Source of the DNA: Spirochaetales bacterium
Lineage (GTDB): Bacteria; Spirochaetota; Spirochaetia; SZUA-6; JAFGRV01
DNA length: 22,156 nt
Direction of reading: 5' to 3'
Assembly: GCA_016937215.1 (NCBI GenBank)
Contig: JAFGWI010000019.1
Coordinates: forward strand, 1 to 22,156
Shown: positions 1,342 through 22,156 of the stretch, in pieces
Layout: every line of letters begins with the position of its first letter
How positions within the stretch are numbered: the stretch's first letter is position 1
Notes under the pieces: model-generated
The model's database searches: none
Told to the model about the DNA's origin: nothing
What the model saw: the letters and a program-made list of their open reading frames with translations, nothing else
Program-made: the position numbers and the translations under genes

Positions 1342-1563
1342 CGAAGCTACTCTACTCGATGGAACTGTGTGCTGTCAAGCTTTCGTTAGTATTGCGGCAG
1401 GGCAAGGTTGTGAAATGGTTTCATGCCCTAATTAAGAGGTCTTGATGGATGTGTTGTCTCCGGGGTTAAAAACAGGGGCGGAACAAGGGGGTTGTGCGAG
1501 GGCTTTGGTTTTTGGCTTGAAAAAAAAGCACCTGGGTTTGAAGTGTTAGGGATAGGAGGCATG

Positions 1564-1735
1564 GCTTGCTATTTTTTCAAAAATGGCAAGCCAAAGCGTT
1601 TTATGCCGGATAATTTCCGGCATAAAACCTTCGGAGCGCCAGCGGAGTGCCGGATAGCCCGACCTGCCATGCCCCTGGGCGGCAGGTAACACCCAAAAAC
1701 AAGAGGAGGGCTGGCTTCTGGTTTCAACTTTTTTT
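1564..1735 (+). ncRNA. Candidate structured RNA/regulatory element, copy A (paralogue of 13279-13397)
   Basis: Hairpin gcttgc-N16-gcaagc (1564-1591) whose loop is the AT palindrome gctattttttcaaaaatggc. Hairpin atgccgg-ataattt-ccggcat (1603-1623). cttcgg (UUCG-type) followed by gagcgccagcggag (1629-1647). Hairpin cctgcc-N12-ggcagg (1663-1686). T7 run at 1729-1735. The first roughly 85 nt align nearly base-for-base with 13279-13365. Overlapping ORFs on both strands (1492..1689, 1546..1800) are judged spurious. Confidence 0.3.
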
Positions 1736-1902: not shown

Positions 1903-3246
1903 ATGAAAAAAACATTATTCTGCCTTATGCGGCCGGCGTTTTTATTTTTATTAGTGGTGATGATTTTGTTGTCCGCAATGGGCTGTGATGTGAGAAATGG
2001 GGCGGCTGAGGAAGGGCTTGGTGAAAAGGCTTTATTGGAACCCTTGGCTGTTATTGACCTGGGTGACCAAGGGGCTATCGAGTTTGTTGAGATTTCACCT
2101 GGTGAATTGGTTGTTGGCGCATTGCTGGGTTCTCCTGATGTTCAAATAAAGGGAATTGATGAATCTCCGCTGGCTGTTTACCGATTTTATACAGGCCAAG
2201 AGCCGCCAACTGAATTGCTGGCTGCTTATGAACGCAGCAAGGTTGCTCAGGCTTTGGATTCCGAGGTCACTGGTTCTGATAACCAGGTTATCCGTCAAGC
2301 TAGTTTGGCAGGCCAATCAAAAATGACGGCCAATGAATTTGAATCTGCCTATTTTAACGCGCCCAACATGAGCCAATATGATTATAAGGTGCTTTATAAA
2401 AATTCAACTGCTTTGTTCCGGACTATACAAAATTGTTTTACTCTTGGTATCCGGGTTTATTCCAGCCAGGGAACGGTCCGATTTAACCTGAAAACCAAAA
2501 TTGGAAGCAGCTGGTCAACTGAATATACCCGTGTTGTTCCTCAGGGAAGTACCTATTATGCTTATACTGGAGGAGTTTGGCGTTCCCGAATGGCGGAGGT
2601 TGTTGAGTCGGACAATGACATTTTCCAGGTAATGTATTTTGGAATGAAAAAAATTTTTGTTTGCGCGAGTTTTGGCGGAAGTTCCAGCACTGATATTCAT
2701 CCTGTTGTGGAAGAACAGGTAAAGGCCGAGGGGATTGTGTTCAATAGTAACAACTGGAATAAGAGTTCGGGTGATGGTGTGTGTTCAAGATCCGATGCTG
2801 ATCACGCGGCAGGAGTTATGAAAGACTGGGCTGCTTTGAATTCTCTGCCTCGGGCCAATATGAACCTTCTGGTTGTGGGTAAGAGCGCCGGAGGTGTCCG
2901 GGCCTGGTATGCTTTTAAACGGAATTTCGGGACACTTGATGATTTTAACAAAGTGGCACTGGTTTTTGTCGATCCCCATGGTTCAGCCCTTGGAGATGGT
3001 GAAGTTGGCACTTACAGCGACGATCAGAGCCTGACATGGCCATCATCCTGGTCCACCAACAAGAGCTTTTTCAGGGTCTATAATATTTATCAGCATTCAA
3101 ATGGATTAACAGGAGCCAGTTTTCCAAGTTCCAATGTTTATAAAAACATAAAAATTACCGGCAATAGTGTGAGTCATGATAATATTCCTGGCCGCCAGGA
3201 AACAAAGGATTTGATCAGAGAAGCTGTGAGGTTTTTAAAACCCTGA
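1903..3246 (+). CDS. Putative secreted lipoprotein, serine hydrolase (alpha/beta-hydrolase/lipase-esterase-like), 447 aa
   Basis: Signal peptide MKKTLFCLMRPAFLFLLVVMILLSAMGC with a Cys consistent with a lipobox. Nucleophile-elbow GxSxG motif in LLVVGKSAGGVRAWYAF, with downstream D and H candidates. SD-like aaaggagaaaag lies 5 nt before the ATG. Confidence 0.45.
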   Translation: MKKTLFCLMRPAFLFLLVVMILLSAMGCDVRNGAAEEGLGEKALLEPLAVIDLGDQGAIEFVEISPGELVVGALLGSPDVQIKGIDESPLAVYRFYTGQEPPTELLAAYERSKVAQALDSEVTGSDNQVIRQASLAGQSKMTANEFESAYFNAPNMSQYDYKVLYKNSTALFRTIQNCFTLGIRVYSSQGTVRFNLKTKIGSSWSTEYTRVVPQGSTYYAYTGGVWRSRMAEVVESDNDIFQVMYFGMKKIFVCASFGGSSSTDIHPVVEEQVKAEGIVFNSNNWNKSSGDGVCSRSDADHAAGVMKDWAALNSLPRANMNLLVVGKSAGGVRAWYAFKRNFGTLDDFNKVALVFVDPHGSALGDGEVGTYSDDQSLTWPSSWSTNKSFFRVYNIYQHSNGLTGASFPSSNVYKNIKITGNSVSHDNIPGRQETKDLIREAVRFLKP

Positions 3247-3277
3247 CAGAAATGCTTTGCATTTATTGCTTGGTGGA

Positions 3278-3389
3278 GTGAATTTTCATTGGCATTCACT
3301 TTTTGACGTGAATGCTCATTGGCATTCACTTTTTGACGTGAATGCTCATTGGCATTCACTTTTTGACGTGAATGCTCATTGGCATTCAC
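3278..3389. repeat. Tandem array of four 30-bp units, each carrying the palindrome GTGAATGC-TCATTG-GCATTCAC (REP-like); the first copy has a degenerate left arm (gtgaattt)
   Basis: Read directly from the sequence. Arms gtgaatgc at 3308, 3338 and 3368; arms gcattcac at 3292, 3322, 3352 and 3382; constant loop tcattg; constant inter-unit spacer tttttgac. A further degenerate palindrome aaatgctttgcattt sits at 3250-3264. The array lies between the stop of the hydrolase gene (3246) and its terminator hairpin (3435-3466), i.e. in its 3'UTR. ORFs 3257..3451 (+) and 3174..3506 (-) are translation artefacts of this repeat. Confidence 0.9.
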
Positions 3390-3434
3390 TTTTATCATGC
3401 CGTTATGCTGGAAAATATTGGGCAGAAAAGGCTT

Positions 3435-6228: not shown

Positions 6229-7359
6229 ATGCTGGAGAAATTGACTTTTAAGGAACATAACCGAATTAAAAATTTGCCGAAATTGCATTTGCCCAAGGAT
6301 TTCGGTTATAATGCTTTTTCGTTTCTGGTGCTGGGCCTGTTTTTGGCTGCCGGAATCGTGATTCAAAACCTGGCCGTTGGTGAATTGGAATCGGAGGTGA
6401 TTCTGGCTGTCGTTCTGGGCACTTTTATGTGCGGCGGAATTTTGTACCTTGTTCCCATGTGGATCGCGGTGATTCAGTTTTCCATATTGGCCTGGGTTGG
6501 CCTTTATGTGGGAGTCGGCGGGAATATTTATCCCTTGTTCGGATTTCTGGTAGCTGCCTTTTTGTTTTCATCCTGCTTTCAACTGGTTCAGCATTGGGAC
6601 AAGGTAGTGATTCTGCGTTTCGGCAAATTCAGAAAAGCCAGAGGGCCAGGCTTGTTTTTGCTTTTTCCGATTATCGACCGTGTGGCTGCTTTTGTGGATA
6701 CCCGGATTCGAGCCACTGATTTCAGCGCTGAAAAAACTCTCACAGCAGATACGGTTCCTGTTCATGTGGACGCGCTGGCTTTCTGGATGGTTTGGGATGT
6801 GAAAGGGGCTGTGCTTGAGGTGGAGGATTTTGTGGAAGCTGTGGTTCTTTCTGCCCAGACTGCTTTGCGAGACGGCATTGGCAAGCATGAATTGGCCGAT
6901 CTATTGTCTGACCGGGACCAGCTGGGCAAGGAGATTCAGAAAATTCTTGATGCTAAAACAAGCCCCTGGGGCATTACGATTCTATCGATTGAAATTACTG
7001 ATATTATTATTCCCAAGGAACTGGAAGATGCCATGAGCCGACGTGCCCAGGCAGAGAGGGAGCGACAATCCCGGGTAATTCTGGGAACTGCGGAACTGGA
7101 AGTAGCTGATAAATTTCAACAGGCCGCGGAGAAATATAAAGATAATCCTACCGCCCTGCATTTACGCGCCATGAACATGATTTACGAGGGTATACGTAAA
7201 AAAGGCACTATCATGCTTCTGCCATCGAGTGCCCTGGATTCCATGTCTCTTGGCGCCAATCTGGGGGCATTGAATCTGGCCAAGGATTTTCAGCAGGGAA
7301 AGTTGGATGACTCATTTTTGCCTGATGAAGAAAAGGGAAATGGCGAAGCTGAGGATTAG
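6229..7359 (+). CDS. SPFH/band-7 (stomatin/prohibitin-like) membrane protein, 376 aa
   Basis: N-terminal hydrophobic helices. SPFH core VILRFGKF..GPGLFLLFPIIDRV...TADTVPVHVDALAFW...ITILSIEITDIIIPKELEDAMSRRAQAERERQSRVILGTAELE, then a coiled-coil and acidic tail. GGAGGA SD 7 nt before the ATG. The gene starts 11 bp after the GntR stop, so the two form an operon. Internal overlapping ORFs are spurious. Confidence 0.8.
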   Translation: MLEKLTFKEHNRIKNLPKLHLPKDFGYNAFSFLVLGLFLAAGIVIQNLAVGELESEVILAVVLGTFMCGGILYLVPMWIAVIQFSILAWVGLYVGVGGNIYPLFGFLVAAFLFSSCFQLVQHWDKVVILRFGKFRKARGPGLFLLFPIIDRVAAFVDTRIRATDFSAEKTLTADTVPVHVDALAFWMVWDVKGAVLEVEDFVEAVVLSAQTALRDGIGKHELADLLSDRDQLGKEIQKILDAKTSPWGITILSIEITDIIIPKELEDAMSRRAQAERERQSRVILGTAELEVADKFQQAAEKYKDNPTALHLRAMNMIYEGIRKKGTIMLLPSSALDSMSLGANLGALNLAKDFQQGKLDDSFLPDEEKGNGEAED

Positions 7360-7501
7360 GCAATCAACTGGAGGCAAAATGTGATCCATGGCATTGAGTT
7401 GTTTGGGAATTTTTTGGGCGTTGCCTGATAAGCCCGGGACAACAATTCTATATTTGAGTACAAATATTACGAATTGCGAGTTATTTTACTTCGGTGCTGT
7501 G

Positions 7502-7590
7502 GCCATTCCAAATATAAACTATTATTAAGGCAGTTAAAAATCATCAGCTGTAATTAAATTGCATACAAAAAGGTTTATATTTGGAATGGC
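7502..7590. repeat. Perfect 18-bp inverted repeat gccattccaaatataaac / gtttatatttggaatggc separated by 53 AT-rich nt
   Basis: Read directly: 7502-7519 is the exact reverse complement of 7573-7590. Could be a stem-loop RNA or a MITE-like element. Confidence 0.85.
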
Positions 7591-7614
7591 TTAGCCGGGG
7601 GCTTTCAGGCTGCA

Positions 7615-7705
7615 GAAACTGTTGCATAACTATAATTAAGAGTATTTCAACTCGCCTACTGGGTCCATAATTGGTTTAGACGAGTTATTCATAGGCAACA
7701 GTTTC
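7615..7705. repeat. Second long-range inverted repeat gaaactgttgc(ataact) / (agttat)tcatag-gcaacagtttc enclosing about 70 nt
   Basis: 11-bp perfect arms at 7615-7625 and 7695-7705. A 6-bp extension (ataact/agttat) is interrupted by a 6-nt bulge. Confidence 0.6.
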
Positions 7706-7832
7706 GTATTTTAAGGTTGTGCAACAACCTCTGCATGGCCGAGCAACAAATCGAAGATTTGTGACAAGGCCCGCCACTTCGGCTTCGCCTTCGAAGGTTA
7801 AGGTGCGGAAGTTATCCGCCCCTTAACGCTTT

Positions 7833-7862
7833 GTTCGACTATTTTTGAAAAAATAGTCGAAC
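7833..7862. promoter_or_regulatory. Perfect 14+14 bp palindrome gttcgactattttt-ga-aaaaatagtcgaac about 120 bp upstream of the ABC operon
   Basis: Read directly. Flanked by near-direct repeats ccttaacgcttt (7821-7832) and ccctaacgctttt (7875-7887). The AT-rich centre ctatttttgaaaaaatag is nearly the reverse complement of the palindrome at the head of element A (1568-1587). Candidate protein operator or element boundary. Confidence 0.5.
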
Positions 7863-7982
7863 ATGGCTTCAATCCCTAACGCTTTTAGCCGGGGTGCTGT
7901 TATTGGCTAGAGAGGCAGGAAGCATATATTCCGCTGACTTGCTTCCATCAAGGAAATCATAGATTTGGAAAAGGAGAGAACG

Positions 7983-11990: not shown

Positions 11991-13135
11991 TGGTTTTTCG
12001 ACGCTGTTTGTTTATCTTTTTTTTACTGGTTCCCGGCTGTTTCCTTTTTGGAGACAGCTGGAATACCATTACTTTGGATTTATCAAACACCTTTACCCGG
12101 GATGCGAAGGATAATTATTATTTACTTCCCGGGGGAAAAGCCTCCATGAGTTTTGAGATGGACAGCGATCGTAATATCAAGGGCGGGATTGAATTAAGTC
12201 TGGACGCCGGGCTTTCCTTTCCCCTTGTTCTGGATCGTTTGTTCATCAAGGCGAGGTTTGACGATTTGCGCCTGACCATGGGAAAAACACGGCTTCCCTG
12301 GGGGCGGGGGTTTTTCTTTAACGCCGGTGATATTATCTGGGATTCCACCAGCCTTGTCACGGATTTGGCTGCCCAGGAATTTCGTACCGATGCTTCGTTT
12401 TTGTTCAGCCCCTATTTTTCCTTGGGACGCTTTACTTTTCTTGAAGCGGTTGTGCTGACCCCGGACATAGACCCTGTGGACATGGCGGCAGCTCAGCTTG
12501 CAGGGATGCCTCCGGAATTACCCCTGTCACATGAACTCAGGGCCGGCCTTCACGGCCAGACAAAATTTTTTGGCGCTGACATCGAGGCAGCCTATCTGTT
12601 TGAAGGTGCCCACGTCATCGATGAGGCTGACCACAAGGCCATGGTCAGCCTCTTTCTCAGCCCCTATATGGACCTTTATGCTTCGGTCAGTTCCCGGCTG
12701 CCCCAAAGCCTGGGTGATTCGGAAAGCTATGGTGAGGTTTTTTATGATAACCTTCAGTTTTCATTTGGTACTTTTTACAGCCACAGCTTTGAGTCCGGGG
12801 CTTCTCTTTCAGGGCGCCTTGAAACATTGCTGTTTCCCTCAAAGGAATTCAAAGCCCTTAGCATTGATGAGAGAGCAGCCGGTGACACCTATGCCTTGTA
12901 TTTATATCCGGAAATATCCTTTGCTCCGGAGCCGATTATGCAGTTTTTTTTACGCGCTATTCTTTCACCCGTGGACCTCAGCACTATTATCATGCTGGGG
13001 GGCAATTTTGAAACCTATCAGAACCTGGTTTTTTACATAGCTTCAAGTTTGATGCTTGGTGAAGAGGAGGACCTTTTCTGTTTTGAAAATAATGGTGGAT
13101 TTTCAATTAAAACCGGTATCAGCTATGTTTATTAA
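11990..13135 (+). CDS. Putative outer-membrane beta-barrel protein, 381 aa
   Basis: N-terminal signal peptide MVFRRCLFIFFLLVPGCFLFG. C-terminal GISYVY with a terminal aromatic residue and alternating hydrophobics (beta-signal-like). Its start overlaps the stop of the LolA-like gene (TAATG), indicating translational coupling. The internal +2-frame ORF 12498..13040 is spurious. Confidence 0.45.
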   Translation: MVFRRCLFIFFLLVPGCFLFGDSWNTITLDLSNTFTRDAKDNYYLLPGGKASMSFEMDSDRNIKGGIELSLDAGLSFPLVLDRLFIKARFDDLRLTMGKTRLPWGRGFFFNAGDIIWDSTSLVTDLAAQEFRTDASFLFSPYFSLGRFTFLEAVVLTPDIDPVDMAAAQLAGMPPELPLSHELRAGLHGQTKFFGADIEAAYLFEGAHVIDEADHKAMVSLFLSPYMDLYASVSSRLPQSLGDSESYGEVFYDNLQFSFGTFYSHSFESGASLSGRLETLLFPSKEFKALSIDERAAGDTYALYLYPEISFAPEPIMQFFLRAILSPVDLSTIIMLGGNFETYQNLVFYIASSLMLGEEEDLFCFENNGGFSIKTGISYVY

Positions 13136-13233: not shown

Positions 13234-13278
13234 ATTGGCTATTGTGCTGAATGTGTTAGTGATTGGAGCTGTGAGGAG

Positions 13279-13397
13279 GTTTTTTTCAAAAAACCGACGA
13301 AAAGCTTTTTGCCGCGTTTTTAGCGGCAAAAACTTCGGAGCGAAAGCGGAGCAGTGGAATGAACGGCCCCGGAAGGGTGTTTTTGTGCCGGTTTTTT
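13279..13397 (+). ncRNA. Candidate structured RNA/regulatory element, copy B (paralogue of 1564-1735)
   Basis: Palindrome ggttttttt-c-aaaaaacc (13279-13296). Hairpin ttgccgc-gttttta-gcggcaa (13309-13329). cttcgg + agcgaaagcggag (13333-13351). T6 run at 13392-13397. Same order and spacing as copy A, with compensatory changes in the 7-bp hairpin. Confidence 0.3.
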
Positions 13398-13556
13398 GCC
13401 CAGGTTATAATTACTATTTCGCGGAAGCGTATAAAGAATCCAGTTTGCTGTAAAAACGCGGGCAAAACCATTTTGAATAGCAATAATGTTACGGCACAGG
13501 ATTCCCTTCCGGGGAAACACCCCAGAGAGTAAAATGATTTATATGGCCGCGTAATT

Positions 13557-17499: not shown

Positions 17500-17686
17500 G
17501 GGTGACTCCTTGTGCTATAAAGTGGCTTTAAAAGCCCTGTTTTTTTGCTGACCCCTTCTCTGAGCCAGGCAGCTGGTTTTCAATCCCCTAGGGAATAGGA
17601 AGCAGGCAAGCTTGTTTTTCAAAACAAACGCAGCCAGCAACAACCATGCTGGCCAAAGCTGACAAGCGCAATCAGGCTGCATGGAT

Positions 17687-17744
17687 ATAGTGAATCCCAA
17701 TGAGGATTCACGTGGACATAGTGAATCCCAATGAGGATTCACGT
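17687..17744. repeat. Two tandem 27-bp units (31-bp period) each containing the palindrome GTGAATCC-CAATGA-GGATTCAC
   Basis: Read directly. atagtgaatcccaatgaggattcacgt appears at 17687-17713 and again at 17718-17744. Read on the minus strand it is GTGAATCC-TCATTG-GGATTCAC, the same loop and arm family as the 3278-3389 array. Located in the divergent region between the LTD lipoprotein gene and the Crp/Fnr-like gene. Confidence 0.85.
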
Positions 17745-18082
17745 CACCGAGCAGGAAAGGCGAAGCATTAATGACCAGAGGTCGTAAAACCCTAAAAAAA
17801 CAAAAGTGATTTTCCCGTTGAAAAAAGGCTTCTCAGTGCCAAAAGATTTTAATGCACTATTCCGATAATCATCAGGGGTCCAAGGGTTTTCACTTTGCCG
17901 TTCCCATAAGTATTAATACCCTTGAAATGTCATCCTGCTTTGGGTTTTTTTTATCTTTTTTGTCTACTTTTTTTAAAAAAGCTGAGTTACATTGTAAAAG
18001 GCTTTGAAAGATATTTTTTTCGTTACCATTGCTGCTTGTATTGGTTATAGGGTAAAATCCCCAAAAGAAAGAGGAGTTTTAA

Positions 18083-19997: not shown

Positions 19998-20015
19998 CAT
20001 GTCCTCACAGATCAA

Positions 20016-20350
20016 GTTGATCGGGTCTCAAAACCCTCCATGCCGTGCCAGACCCCGGGACGCGGCAAAAACCGGTTGTCAATAATACTCTTTTTGGGCT
20101 GTTTGGAAAAGGGGGCCGGCATACTCTCGTGCCATTTGCGGGCTTCTTTTTTTTGGGCATTACCTGGTGAAAAGGCTAATTGACACAGCTTCCCGGAACC
20201 CGAACGAACAGCCCCCAAAACAGCGGCACCAGGCCCGGGCTTTCCGCTCCAACTCCTCGCGCCGCTGAATAAACGGAAGCTTCCGGATCTCTCTCCTTTC
20301 TCACGAGCCCCGCGGCCTTGCCCCGGCGCGGCGCTGCGGGGTTTCCGCTT
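20016..20350 (-). other. GC-rich non-coding island upstream of mnmA: candidate structured RNA or leader (identity unresolved)
   Basis: Markedly more G+C-rich than the surrounding sequence, with runs such as ccccggg, gcgccgc and cccgggc. The only ORF (20012..20353) translates to low-complexity RG/PG-rich text. Contains stems, e.g. ccccgcgg...ctgcgggg and the perfect palindrome cggaagcttccg. Strand assigned only by position relative to mnmA. Confidence 0.25.
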
Positions 20351-20755
20351 CAATCCCTAATGCGGTGAAAGGCGGGCTGTGGCCGGAATTGGCGCTGGGC
20401 ATAATCGATCCAGCTGTCTTCCTGTATGGCATGAAAGCTGGTGCTCAGCGCTATGTTCAGGGTATCACCTGTATTTTGATCCAGAACAATGTTTTTTTGG
20501 CCCGGAATGTCTGACACAGGGAGCCATGCTTTGAAATTCAGCATTCAGGTTAATATTTTTATGAAGCTGAGCCTCGTGCTTCAAGCTTTGAAGATGCTCC
20601 TCTTCCTCAAAAAGCTTTTCATCATAGGGGGCCGCCCGCGCCAGCTTCATCAAGCTCTTAACAGTGTTGAAATGAGCAGTTAAATCGCATGCCCCCCCTA
20701 AGATTACAGGATTTTTTAGTGTGAAACCCGGAAATTTGGTCTTTAGAGTGGCCAT
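20350..20755 (-). pseudogene. Small gene (about 135 aa if merged) split into two frames at a T7/A7 homopolymer (20492-20498)
   Basis: ORFs 20465..20755 and 20350..20544 are adjacent, same strand, in different frames, and overlap exactly over the homopolymer. A 1-nt indel would fuse them (MATLKTKFPGF...HSGP | KNIVLDQNTGDTLNIALSTSFHAIQED...). Could be a sequencing error, a true pseudogene, or slippage. Confidence 0.3.
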
Positions 20756-20825: not shown

Positions 20826-20859
20826 AAAAAAAAAGAGGATATCCCGAGGGGATATCCTC
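20826..20859 (-). terminator. Rho-independent terminator of the repeat-protein gene
   Basis: Perfect 11-bp stem gaggatatccc / gggatatcctc with loop gag, immediately followed on the minus strand by U9 (A9 at 20826-20834 on the plus strand). Confidence 0.7.
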
Positions 20860-21094
20860 GTGGTGATTAAATAATATCACCCAAAATGGTGATTAATCAT
20901 TGATTATTCGATTACTCGGGTAAAAATTTGTTCCGCACCGGAGATTAGATGATAGGGTGTATTTATAAATAAAGCTATTTCATTATATCCTTCTAATTCC
21001 GGACTAATGCTACCGTCATAGTCCTCATTGTAAATCTTCGAACATTCAGAGTGTCTCTTAAGCATAAATTTTCGTCAGTAAGTTCTGCTTGTGT

Positions 21095-22156
21095 TTAGTT
21101 ATTCATCATAGTAGCGCAAAAAACGATAAAATTTTGAGCCGGGTATTCGATCCCATTTATTGTAACGGTCCCAACAGCTGTATCTGTGTAGATAGTATCA
21201 CTCGTAACATCATAATTAGCCACAATCGTTGAAATGGTCGTTGAGTCAAAAGTAATAACCAAATTTGCGGTTATGGTTCTGGTCGTGTCTTCATTAAAGG
21301 TTTCTGAAAGTGTTCCGTTTACTGAAAATGGATGTGGTGAAGTTGGTAAGGGTGTATTTGTGAATGTTGTTATTTGTCCATTATCAGAGATGGGTGTTTT
21401 CTCAATGGTGGGATCCTGATCTCCAGCAGCCCAGCTGAGCATCATTGCTGTGAATAAAAAATTATATCCTATTTCTTCATTGTCTATTTCAGGATCTGGT
21501 GTTACTTCAGGGTCGTTTGAAATATTTTGAATCAAATAAGTATAAAATGCCTGAGCGTTTATTTCAACATCGTTTATAATAATTGTACCGACTGCAATAG
21601 GATCGGCTATGTTCGAATTGTCATAATCAAATGACCCGTTGATTGTGAATAAATTGGGGTCATTGGTGAAAATGAAATTGAAAGTTATATTTCCGTTTAT
21701 TTCTGTGCCAGTTGATAATAAATTTCCGCTTGCCTTATAATCTGGTTCTTCTGAATTGTATACAGCATTATTTAAAGTTGCATTCATCACGCCATCACTA
21801 TTGCTAGCTGAAACTGTTGTGCCATCAGGGTCAGTGATCTGTCGATAAAGATTTGTGCATACCTCATAAGCATATAATTCTGTTTCTTCATTTAACACCG
21901 GGATTTCAGTTACTTCAGGTTCCGGTGTCACTTCAGGTTCCGGTGTCACTTCAGGTTCTGGTGTCACTTCAGGTTCTGGTGTCACTTCAGGTTCTGGTGT
22001 CACTTCAGGTTCCGGTGTCACTTCAGGTTCTGGTGTCACTTCAGGTTCCGGTGTTACTTCAGGTTCCGGTGTTACTTCAGGTTCCGGTGTTACTTCAGGT
22101 TCCGGTGTTACTTCAGGTTCCGGTGTTACTTCAGGTTCTGGTGTTACTTCAGGTTC
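21095..22156 (-). CDS. Secreted/surface repeat protein, 5'-truncated by the window edge: N-terminal (TPEPEV)n linker then two related Thr/Asn/Ile-rich beta-type domains
   Basis: The reading frame is open to the end of the window. The M at 22039 in the ORF track is a GTG (Val) codon inside the repeat, not a start. The C-terminal part contains an internal duplication ([22 protein letters not shown] vs [22 protein letters not shown]). Confidence 0.7.
21911..22156. repeat. At least 13 tandem copies of the 18-bp unit ggttcYggtgtYacttca (encoding TPEPEV on the minus strand), continuing past the window end
   Basis: Read directly. Units differ only at two Y positions, which fall on third codon positions (ccg/cca Pro, gtg/gta Val). 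Confidence 0.9.

Follow-up and report, generated by a model that had tools for sequence, protein, structure and literature searches.

The 22,156-nt contig JAFGWI010000019.1 of a Spirochaetales metagenome-assembled genome (MAG), called the window here, carries four copies of a structured element, designated A, B, C, and D. By sequence comparison they can be assigned with high confidence to one interspersed intergenic repeat, the ~60-nt handle of which is homologous to Flavo-1 (RF01705). A and B lie on the plus strand and C and D on the minus strand, in the order A+, C-, B+, D-. The original prediction for this DNA concerned A and B and proposed a novel family of small RNAs or regulatory elements. 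The conserved core is that of Flavo-1, already described in Rfam, and judged from the comparisons below the copies are an expanded, multi-branched Flavo-1 variant beyond the reach of the Rfam model, not a new family. Taking all evidence together, the element is on balance probably a non-autonomous, strand-specifically folding interspersed repeat of this expanded Flavo-1 type. With moderate confidence, its spread can be ascribed to insertion, in both orientations, into intergenic DNA and into the genomes of phages.

The homology rests on three results: a covariance model built from instances outside the window finds the copies, copy D aligns to the whole Rfam model, and flavobacterial instances retrieved with the same 5' box and AT hairpin pass the Rfam threshold. 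At the Rfam gathering threshold (42 bits for Flavo-1) nothing in the whole window matches, the four copies included. An Rfam scan had been proposed as a test in the original prediction; Flavo-1 emerged from local searches judged by E-value and from intermediate sequences. Local searches covered the regions of A, B, and D. Copy D matched the full Flavo-1 model (28.6 bits, E=3e-4) with an 84-nt insert replacing the 23-nt apex, copy B matched part of it (21.2 bits), and Flavo-1 was not among the matches for the copy A region. Intermediate sequences came from a genome scan with the 5' box and AT hairpin as query. This retrieved flavobacteria (Postechiella, Jejuia, Psychroserpens, and others), a Treponemataceae MAG (JARGFC01; at least 9 loci in the scan and at least 10 copies), a Treponema species, an Anaerobutyricum, and a contig binned as Bacteroidales with a copy very near to copy A. 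The flavobacterial instances score 44-67 bits on the Rfam model, and the same boxes are present in the Treponemataceae, Treponema, and Anaerobutyricum instances. The model R1 was then built from 15 non-window instances, 5 of which pass the Rfam threshold; its structure comprises helix P1 and the bases of helices P2 and P3. With filters off, R1 detected copy A (55.2 bits, E=1.7e-10) and copy D (34.1 bits, E=6.7e-6) over their full length, the 5' part of copy C (21.2 bits, E=0.0045; its 3' end 12.6 bits), and only the 5' part of copy B (15.2 bits, E about 0.09). The copies are therefore recovered by an independent model that includes bona fide Flavo-1 members.

The Flavo-1 helix base, GGG-A-UW-GNA-GC : GC-GRA-WA-G-CCC, is fully present in A and D and has two mismatches in B. 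In C the 5' strand and the inner 4 bp are present and the 3' strand is displaced. Copy D has the same helix-base nucleotides and pairs as Flavo-1 (GGGAUUGAAGCGGAAA ... GAGCGGAAAGCCC). The U-run/A-run apex TTTTTTCAAAAA is found in A, B, and C and is absent from D. Flavo-1 was reported in 2010 from Bacteroidetes and some Spirochaetes as an orphan motif (Weinberg et al., PMC2864571), and it is among the most abundant orphan families in Rfam (PMC9029176). The taxonomic range (Bacteroidota and some Spirochaetota, here a Spirochaetales MAG) and the many copies per genome agree with this. A literature search with the box sequences gave nothing pertinent (V5-tag primers only).

The copies differ from Flavo-1 as modeled in Rfam in size and branching. 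Flavo-1 is a single ~76-nt hairpin with a U-rich/A-rich apex, whereas the window copies are 157-473 nt long and carry several hairpins inside a multi-branch P2, with 90-280 nt of extra hairpins where Rfam has an apex of ~23 nt. The Rfam model describes only the P2 arm (GGG-A-UU-GAA-GC ... GC-GGA-AA-G-CCC), without P1, P3, and the CCAAAA tail, which are conserved and covarying here. The family exceeds its model in size and modularity: its members conserve a closing helix, a second variable arm, and an A-tail, and hundreds of nucleotides can stand in for the apex. Many of them are therefore unannotated, all four copies described here among them.

The handle common to all copies consists of P1 (GYRTTA : TAAYRC), the P2 base (GGG-A-TW-GNA : GRA-WA-G-CCC), the variable hairpin P3, and a CCAAAAA tail. 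Further variable hairpins sit inside P2, of which H1, H2, and H3 are common to A, B, and C. This variable cargo within P2 and P3 accounts for element lengths of 60 nt (in a microvirus) up to ~470 nt (copy C). It can be said with high confidence that the handle in one strand would form a three-way junction with purine-rich internal loops in the P2 base. The 3' box, GRA-WA-G-CCC-GR followed by a variable hairpin and (T/G)AAYRC-CC-AAAA, was recognized when instances from other genomes were compared. The 3' TAAYRC is the pairing partner of the 5' hexamer, which defines copy A as 1543-1699. Copy C was located by a 5' box search with mismatches and copy D by a fuzzy search for the boxes.

Conservation of structure over sequence, claimed in the original prediction for one hairpin, holds throughout the family. 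Within the window the two strands of P1 covary (A, GTGTTA/TAACAC; C, GCGTTA/AACGC; D, GCATTA/TAATGC). In 26 distinct instances aligned to R1, 95% of core cells are paired and 9 of the 15 core pairs changed on both sides; none of 500 shuffles reached the observed values, and with partners slid about 40% of cells were paired. This alignment was fitted to R1 and hence favours pairing, but the seed pairs are also visible in a plain MAFFT alignment. In a MAFFT alignment of the interiors of A, B, C, and the other-genome instance L007, 93% of cells are paired, against 40-49% in slid controls, and both sides have changed in 17 of 40 pairs. The outer H1 stem, for instance, reads GGCTTGC/GCAAGCC in A and GTTCGAC/GTCGAAC in C. 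H3 shows U-A/U-G variation only, which is compatible with pairing and is not proof of it. Folding favours the sense strand (5' GYRUUAGGG...) over its complement in every one of 24 instances, with a mean difference of -5.2 kcal/mol; in copy D the difference is -18 kcal/mol, with 13 G-U pairs against 5. The minimum free energy (MFE) fold of copy A contains P1, H1, H2, and P3 (z=-5.6), and that of copy B (13253-13522) closes P1 and the long P3 (z=-3.5). Copy C folds with P1 closed (z=-9.8). Enforcing the family-type P2 closure costs +13.8 kcal/mol relative to its MFE, and the 3' half of this copy is therefore uncertain. Its first part repeats the parts of A in the same order (box, H1 with the TTTTTTCAAAAA apex, H2, H3) with heavily compensated stems, and the terminal AACGCCCAAAAAA is kept 470 nt downstream of its 5' box. 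The interior of copy D is GC-rich, differs from that of A, B, and C, and lacks the TTTTTTCAAAAA hairpin.

The resemblance of A and B, from which the original prediction started, is real and far beyond chance. The 18-mer TTCGGAGCGNNAGCGGAG occurs exactly at 1630-1647 and 13334-13351, with a chance expectation of ~0.12 matches even when 3 mismatches are allowed. The reported 7-bp hairpin (ATGCCGG/CCGGCAT in A, TTGCCGC/GCGGCAA in B) does contain two double compensatory changes with a 7-nt loop in both copies; the sequence given before it in copy B had two T too many, and the stems actually measure 11 bp (TTTTATGCCGG, copy A) and 10 bp (TTTTTGCCGC, copy B). The likeness begins ~20 nt earlier than had been stated, at GTGTTAG-GAT-GGAG (1543-1558 and 13253-13268), and both copies are larger than reported. 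A supposed cUUCGg tetraloop is the 5' strand (CUUCG) of the third hairpin, closed by CGGAG or CGAAG in A, B, C, and L007. T-runs had been taken as the 3' ends of a 120-170 nt transcript, which the boundaries do not support: A ends at 1699, before the run at 1729-1735, the run of copy B (13392-13397) lies inside its long P3, and no plus-strand terminator is called for either copy. The prediction that further copies should exist was borne out by C and D. Fragments of one known repeat had been named as an outcome that would count against it, and the result comes close to that. What stands is a structured family that arose neither by chance nor as coding sequence. A role as small RNA gene or regulator is not borne out: promoter and terminator signals are inconsistent, orientation is mixed, and syntenic relatives lack the element.

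Table 1. Positions of the four element copies and their parts in the window. Minus-strand parts are given from 5' to 3' of the element.
Feature	Position	Strand	Sequence or remark
Copy A	1543..1699	+	complete, 157 nt
A, P1 5' strand	1543-1548	+	GTGTTA
A, P2 base	1549-1561	+	GGG-A-TA-GGA-GGCA
A, H1	1563-1592	+	apex TTTTTTCAAAAA
A, H2	1598-1628	+	
A, H3	1629-1647	+	
A, P2 3' strand	1648-1660	+	TGCC-GGA-TA-G-CCC, then GA 1661-1662
A, P3	1663-1686	+	
A, P1 3' strand	1687-1692	+	TAACAC
A, tail	1693-1699	+	CCAAAAA
Copy C	7410..7882	-	5' end 7882; 473 nt, 3' half expanded or rearranged
C, P1 5' strand	7882-7877	-	GCGTTA
C, P2 base	7876-7864	-	GGG-A-TT-GAA-GCCA
C, H1	7862-7833	-	
C, H2	7827-7797	-	
C, H3	7796-7777	-	
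C, inner P2 3' strand	7776-7773	-	TGGC, then ~340 nt of extra long hairpins
C, 3'-box-like	7607-7599	-	UGAAAGCCC
C, inverted repeat	7502-7590	-	37-nt arms, within the extra hairpins
C, end	7422-7410	-	AACGC-CC-AAAAAA
Copy B	13253..13523	+	complete, partly degenerate, 271 nt
B, P1 5' strand	13253-13258	+	GTGTTA
B, P2 base	13259-13271	+	GTG-A-TT-GGA-GCTG
B, H1	13278-13295	+	
B, H2	13306-13332	+	
B, H3	13333-13351	+	
B, P2 3' strand	13352-13366	+	CAGT-GGA-AT-G-AAC-GG; 2 mismatches in P2 base
B, base of long P3	13367-13377 : 13504-13514	+	CCCCGGAAGGG : CCCTTCCGGGG
B, P1 3' strand	13516-13520	+	AACAC
B, tail	13521-13523	+	CCC, without A-run
Copy D	20147..20363	-	5' end 20363; complete, 217 nt
D, P1 5' strand	20363-20358	-	GCATTA
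D, P2 base	20357-20347	-	GGG-A-TT-GAA-GC
D, interior	20346-20248	-	
D, P2 3' strand	20247-20237	-	GC-GGA-AA-G-CCC, then GGG 20236-20234
D, P3	20233-20227 : 20169-20163	-	CCTGGTG : CACCAGG
D, P1 3' strand	20161-20157	-	AATGC, preceded by T 20162
D, tail	20156-20147	-	CC-AAAAAAAA

Several observations support insertion: relatives have one site empty, abundance is lineage-specific, orientation is mixed, subfamilies are specific to genomes, arrays are mosaic, and the element occurs in phages. The operon GntR-Band_7-ABC-FtsX-FtsX-LolA_like-unknown is syntenic in three related Spirochaetales MAGs, whose slipin (Band_7) proteins are 71-76% identical to that of the window. The Band_7/ABC spacer measures 31, 34, and 83 nt in these relatives and 605 nt in the window, where it contains copy C. 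R1 at E<=1 found no copy in 58.7 kb of the three syntenic relatives, compared with four in 22 kb of the window. The element is thus both multi-copy and variably present at an orthologous site, one such site having been compared. Without copy C the spacer would still be ~150 nt (7360-7410 and 7883-7982), against 31-83 nt in the relatives. The left flank of copy C holds GGAGGCAAAATGTGATCC, which resembles the ribosome-binding site and ATGATC start of the ABC gene in the relatives and, by this resemblance, may be a relic of the original start region of that gene. Overall the element looks more like an inserted repeat than a conserved small RNA gene.

Intergenic regions of the Treponemataceae MAG consist of mosaic TD-2 repeat arrays in which the element forms the final module (L008 490-1023; also L001, L014, L015, and L018). 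The TD-2-type modules there have three hairpins with ACGGAU-type loops, and TD-2 matches stop exactly where the Flavo-1-type 5' box starts. Among viruses, 24 contigs contain the element boxes, 17 of which are Microviridae with capsid F and Rep genes. Viral instances were retrieved with the 3'-box pattern and with both boxes together; a viral scan with the AT-hairpin pattern gave no match, and a metagenome scan with the subfamily-specific TTTTTCAAAAATN8AAAGCGTT gave 24 chance matches and no element. The microvirus contigs from IMG/VR (4.5-8.5 kb) carry the element in short non-coding DNA (L045, L046, L047, L049, L053, L055, L061, L063-L065, L067, L069, L070, L072, L073, L075), and one of them contains the minimal 60-nt form (L046 1673-1732). 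A literature search on microvirus intergenic stem-loops and on REP/RAYT in these phyla turned up nothing specific.

That the copies are independently transcribed, trans-acting small RNA genes, with the handle as protein-binding or scaffold domain and the variable hairpins as the specificity part, was the idea of the original prediction and is the presumption of Rfam for Flavo-1. Strand-specific covariation with G-U pairs on the sense strand only and a junction core highly conserved across phyla would fit it. Flavo-1 regions have also been reported among unannotated transcribed regions of Leptospira (bioRxiv 10.1101/2023.03.29.534852). In Flavobacterium psychrophilum, however, Flavo-1 matches lie in sense or in antisense orientation to transcribed regions, and many show no transcription (PMC9723704). 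Consensus scans of the copies found a promoter-like site before copy B only, a sigma-70-like TTAACA-18-TATTGT ending 7 nt before it; the copies lack a common promoter at constant spacing, and none is followed by a terminator. A length of 60 to ~470 nt, the absence from syntenic relatives (whose operon spacer is empty at the site of copy C), and the position on the non-coding strand in one microvirus lineage also make small RNA genes unlikely. A cis-acting leader or untranslated-region element upstream of start codons, tuning translation or mRNA stability with the A-rich tail as an unstructured ribosome landing site, is less probable again. Of 26 instances, 16 share their strand with the downstream gene, most of them with its start codon 20-70 nt past the tail; A lies 203 nt before the gene at 1903-3246 and D ~150 nt before mnmA, and several 5' transcribed regions of F. 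psychrophilum coincide with Flavo-1 matches (PMC9723704). The other 10 instances face a convergent gene, 7 of the 26 are antisense to both neighbours, and B and C belong to these classes. A split of 16 to 10 is indistinguishable from random orientation, and the downstream genes are unrelated (Rep protein, mnmA, unknowns). In certain flavobacterial and microviral copies, among them L002 (about 7190-7250) and L046 (about 1640-1672, minus strand), a Bacteroidetes-type promoter motif (TTG ... TAnnTTTG) occurs just downstream of the A-tail, which places the element outside the transcript of the next gene. Genes for paralogous small proteins (A MACYFFKNGKPKRF..., B VRRFFSKNRRKAF..., C MFDYFFKNSRTKR*) were rejected and are the least credible explanation. 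A, B, and C do have a purine-rich, GGAG-like box and an ATG or GTG before a short open reading frame (ORF), with a common YFFKN motif. The supposed Shine-Dalgarno box is, however, the conserved GNA internal loop of P2, and YFFKN is the apex of the TTTTTTCAAAAA hairpin. As the original prediction noted, the ORFs over the copies differ in indel phase: A and B are 5 nt apart (net) between the apex of H1 and H3, the ORF over C stops after 13 codons, and none is present in D or in instances from other genomes. The stem substitutions are compensatory, not synonymous.

A signal acting in single-stranded DNA, such as a complementary-strand origin or a primosome or primase entry site used by Microviridae and scattered in host chromosomes, is no more plausible than a leader and if anything a little less so. 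At least 17 microvirus contigs, spread over several lineages, have the element in their scarce non-coding DNA, one strand folds better in all instances, and the sense strand is the gene strand in three microvirus lineages. In Microviridae the gene strand is the packaged strand. A fourth lineage, of 7 contigs, has the element opposite to the genes, and the copies in the window alternate +, -, +, - within 22 kb and therefore cannot all face the same replication strand. No similarity to known ssi or sso signals emerged, no test having been aimed at it. The non-autonomous repeat faces objections of its own. The empty site is a single one, and it belongs to C, the copy that departs most from the canonical form. 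Neither a target-site duplication nor a long terminal inverted repeat nor a transposase was seen; inverted ends are limited to the 5-6 bp of P1. The sense-strand fold advantage is partly built into the purine-rich loops of the shared core, so the 24 cases are not independent. Many substitutions among copies of one genome are fully compensated, including 5 of 7 outer H1 pairs between A and C, and these would therefore be old copies under structural selection, as a functional RNA family would also show. The handle has ~35 highly conserved positions across three phyla, which exceeds most selfish hairpin repeats and would suit a functional RNA or ribozyme-like core. A more far-reaching and rather doubtful proposal is that Flavo-1-type elements of Bacteroidota, Spirochaetota, some Firmicutes, and Microviridae form a cross-phylum class of non-autonomous mobile elements of an undescribed kind. 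Such elements would combine a handle lacking long terminal inverted repeats and target-site duplications with interchangeable hairpin cargo and a strand-specific single-stranded intermediate (DNA or RNA); an enzyme such as an HUH-type nuclease or a reverse transcriptase would act on the handle, unless the handle were itself catalytic.

Among known systems other than Flavo-1, close parallels are the REP/BIME, ERIC, BOX, and Correia repeats (REPIN/MITE-like, where MITE is a miniature inverted-repeat transposable element). Like these, the element is multi-copy, intergenic, and found in either orientation. Shared features also include imperfect palindromes preserved by compensatory change, modular or expanded variants enlarged by internal insertions, and presence or absence between related genomes; both kinds also form mosaic arrays together with different repeats, here TD-2 in the Treponemataceae MAG. 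It differs in that its core is a three-way junction with ~35 positions common across phyla and not a simple 20-40 nt palindrome or a structure with long terminal inverted repeats. REP sequences of REPIN-RAYT systems are 20-40 nt palindromes with a GTAG or CGTC tag that flank a RAYT gene. The element has no such strict tag: its conserved loop G-N-A-G varies among instances between GTAG, GGAG, GAAG, and GCAG, and no associated RAYT or transposase was identified in sequence short of a complete genome. Neither the terminal inverted repeats of an autonomous insertion sequence nor the target-site duplication typical of a MITE is present; direct repeats were not found around A, C, D, or the instances from other genomes, and the window contains no transposase. 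The TD-2 and TD-1 repeats of Treponema denticola (RF03162, clan CL00124; PMC1950547) are likewise multi-copy hairpin repeats and are spirochaete-specific, but their sequences and folds are unrelated to the handle, and Rfam finds neither in the window.

If the element is a non-autonomous repeat, it would propagate or be selected as its single-stranded sense strand, either RNA or single-stranded DNA, with the handle as the recognition site of a trans-acting factor. REP, ERIC, and BOX repeats in transcripts affect mRNA processing or stability. A copy co-transcribed with a neighbour might by analogy add a very stable RNA structure and could affect processing or stability; candidates would be A and D, which precede the gene at 1903-3246 and mnmA, respectively, and B, which follows the operon ending at 13135. 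If the repeat is confirmed, the label of small RNA gene for Flavo-1 matches would be misleading, and the search for a function should be directed at recognition of the handle.

Other assignments were rejected. The element ends in an A-run and not in a U-run, and the terminator-like calls correspond only to H2 read on the opposite strand. Integron attC sites have paired core sites of the polarity 5' RYYYAAC ... GTTRRRY 3'. The element reads 5' GCGTTA ... TAACGC 3' on either strand, which is the opposite polarity. Mimicry of a tRNA or a CCA end was an idea only, and no T-loop motif was found. An apparent inverted duplication in copy B represents the two strands of its long P3, and the inverted repeat I19 is inside the same hairpin. 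A suspected fifth copy at 20838-20885 proved to be a terminator-like hairpin belonging to a minus-strand gene. The perfect hairpin (GGATATCCCC-TC-GGGATATCC, 20838-20870) is followed by a T-run on the minus strand and lies ~225 nt downstream of the gene at 21095-22039.

Around copy D, three short ORFs of 96, 64, and 113 aa overlap on the minus strand (20012-20755), upstream of the copy and across it. They may be a gene remnant beside the insertion; the 96-aa ORF, the only one scanned, has no Pfam match. MnmA homologues are at most 59% identical.

The window contains two further kinds of repeat. A second hairpin-repeat family comprises four tandem 30-nt units (CTTTTTGACGTGAATGCTCATTGGCATTCA) at 3269-3390 on the plus strand and two inverted 31-nt units at 17682-17746. 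Between them GTGAATGC/GCATTCAC is replaced by GTGAATCC/GGATTCAC, a compensated G:C to C:G change; this family has no Rfam match. A tandem repeat with an 18-nt unit occupies 21855-22156; it codes for (TPEPEV)n at the N-terminal end of the minus-strand ORF at 21095-22039 and runs past the end of the window.

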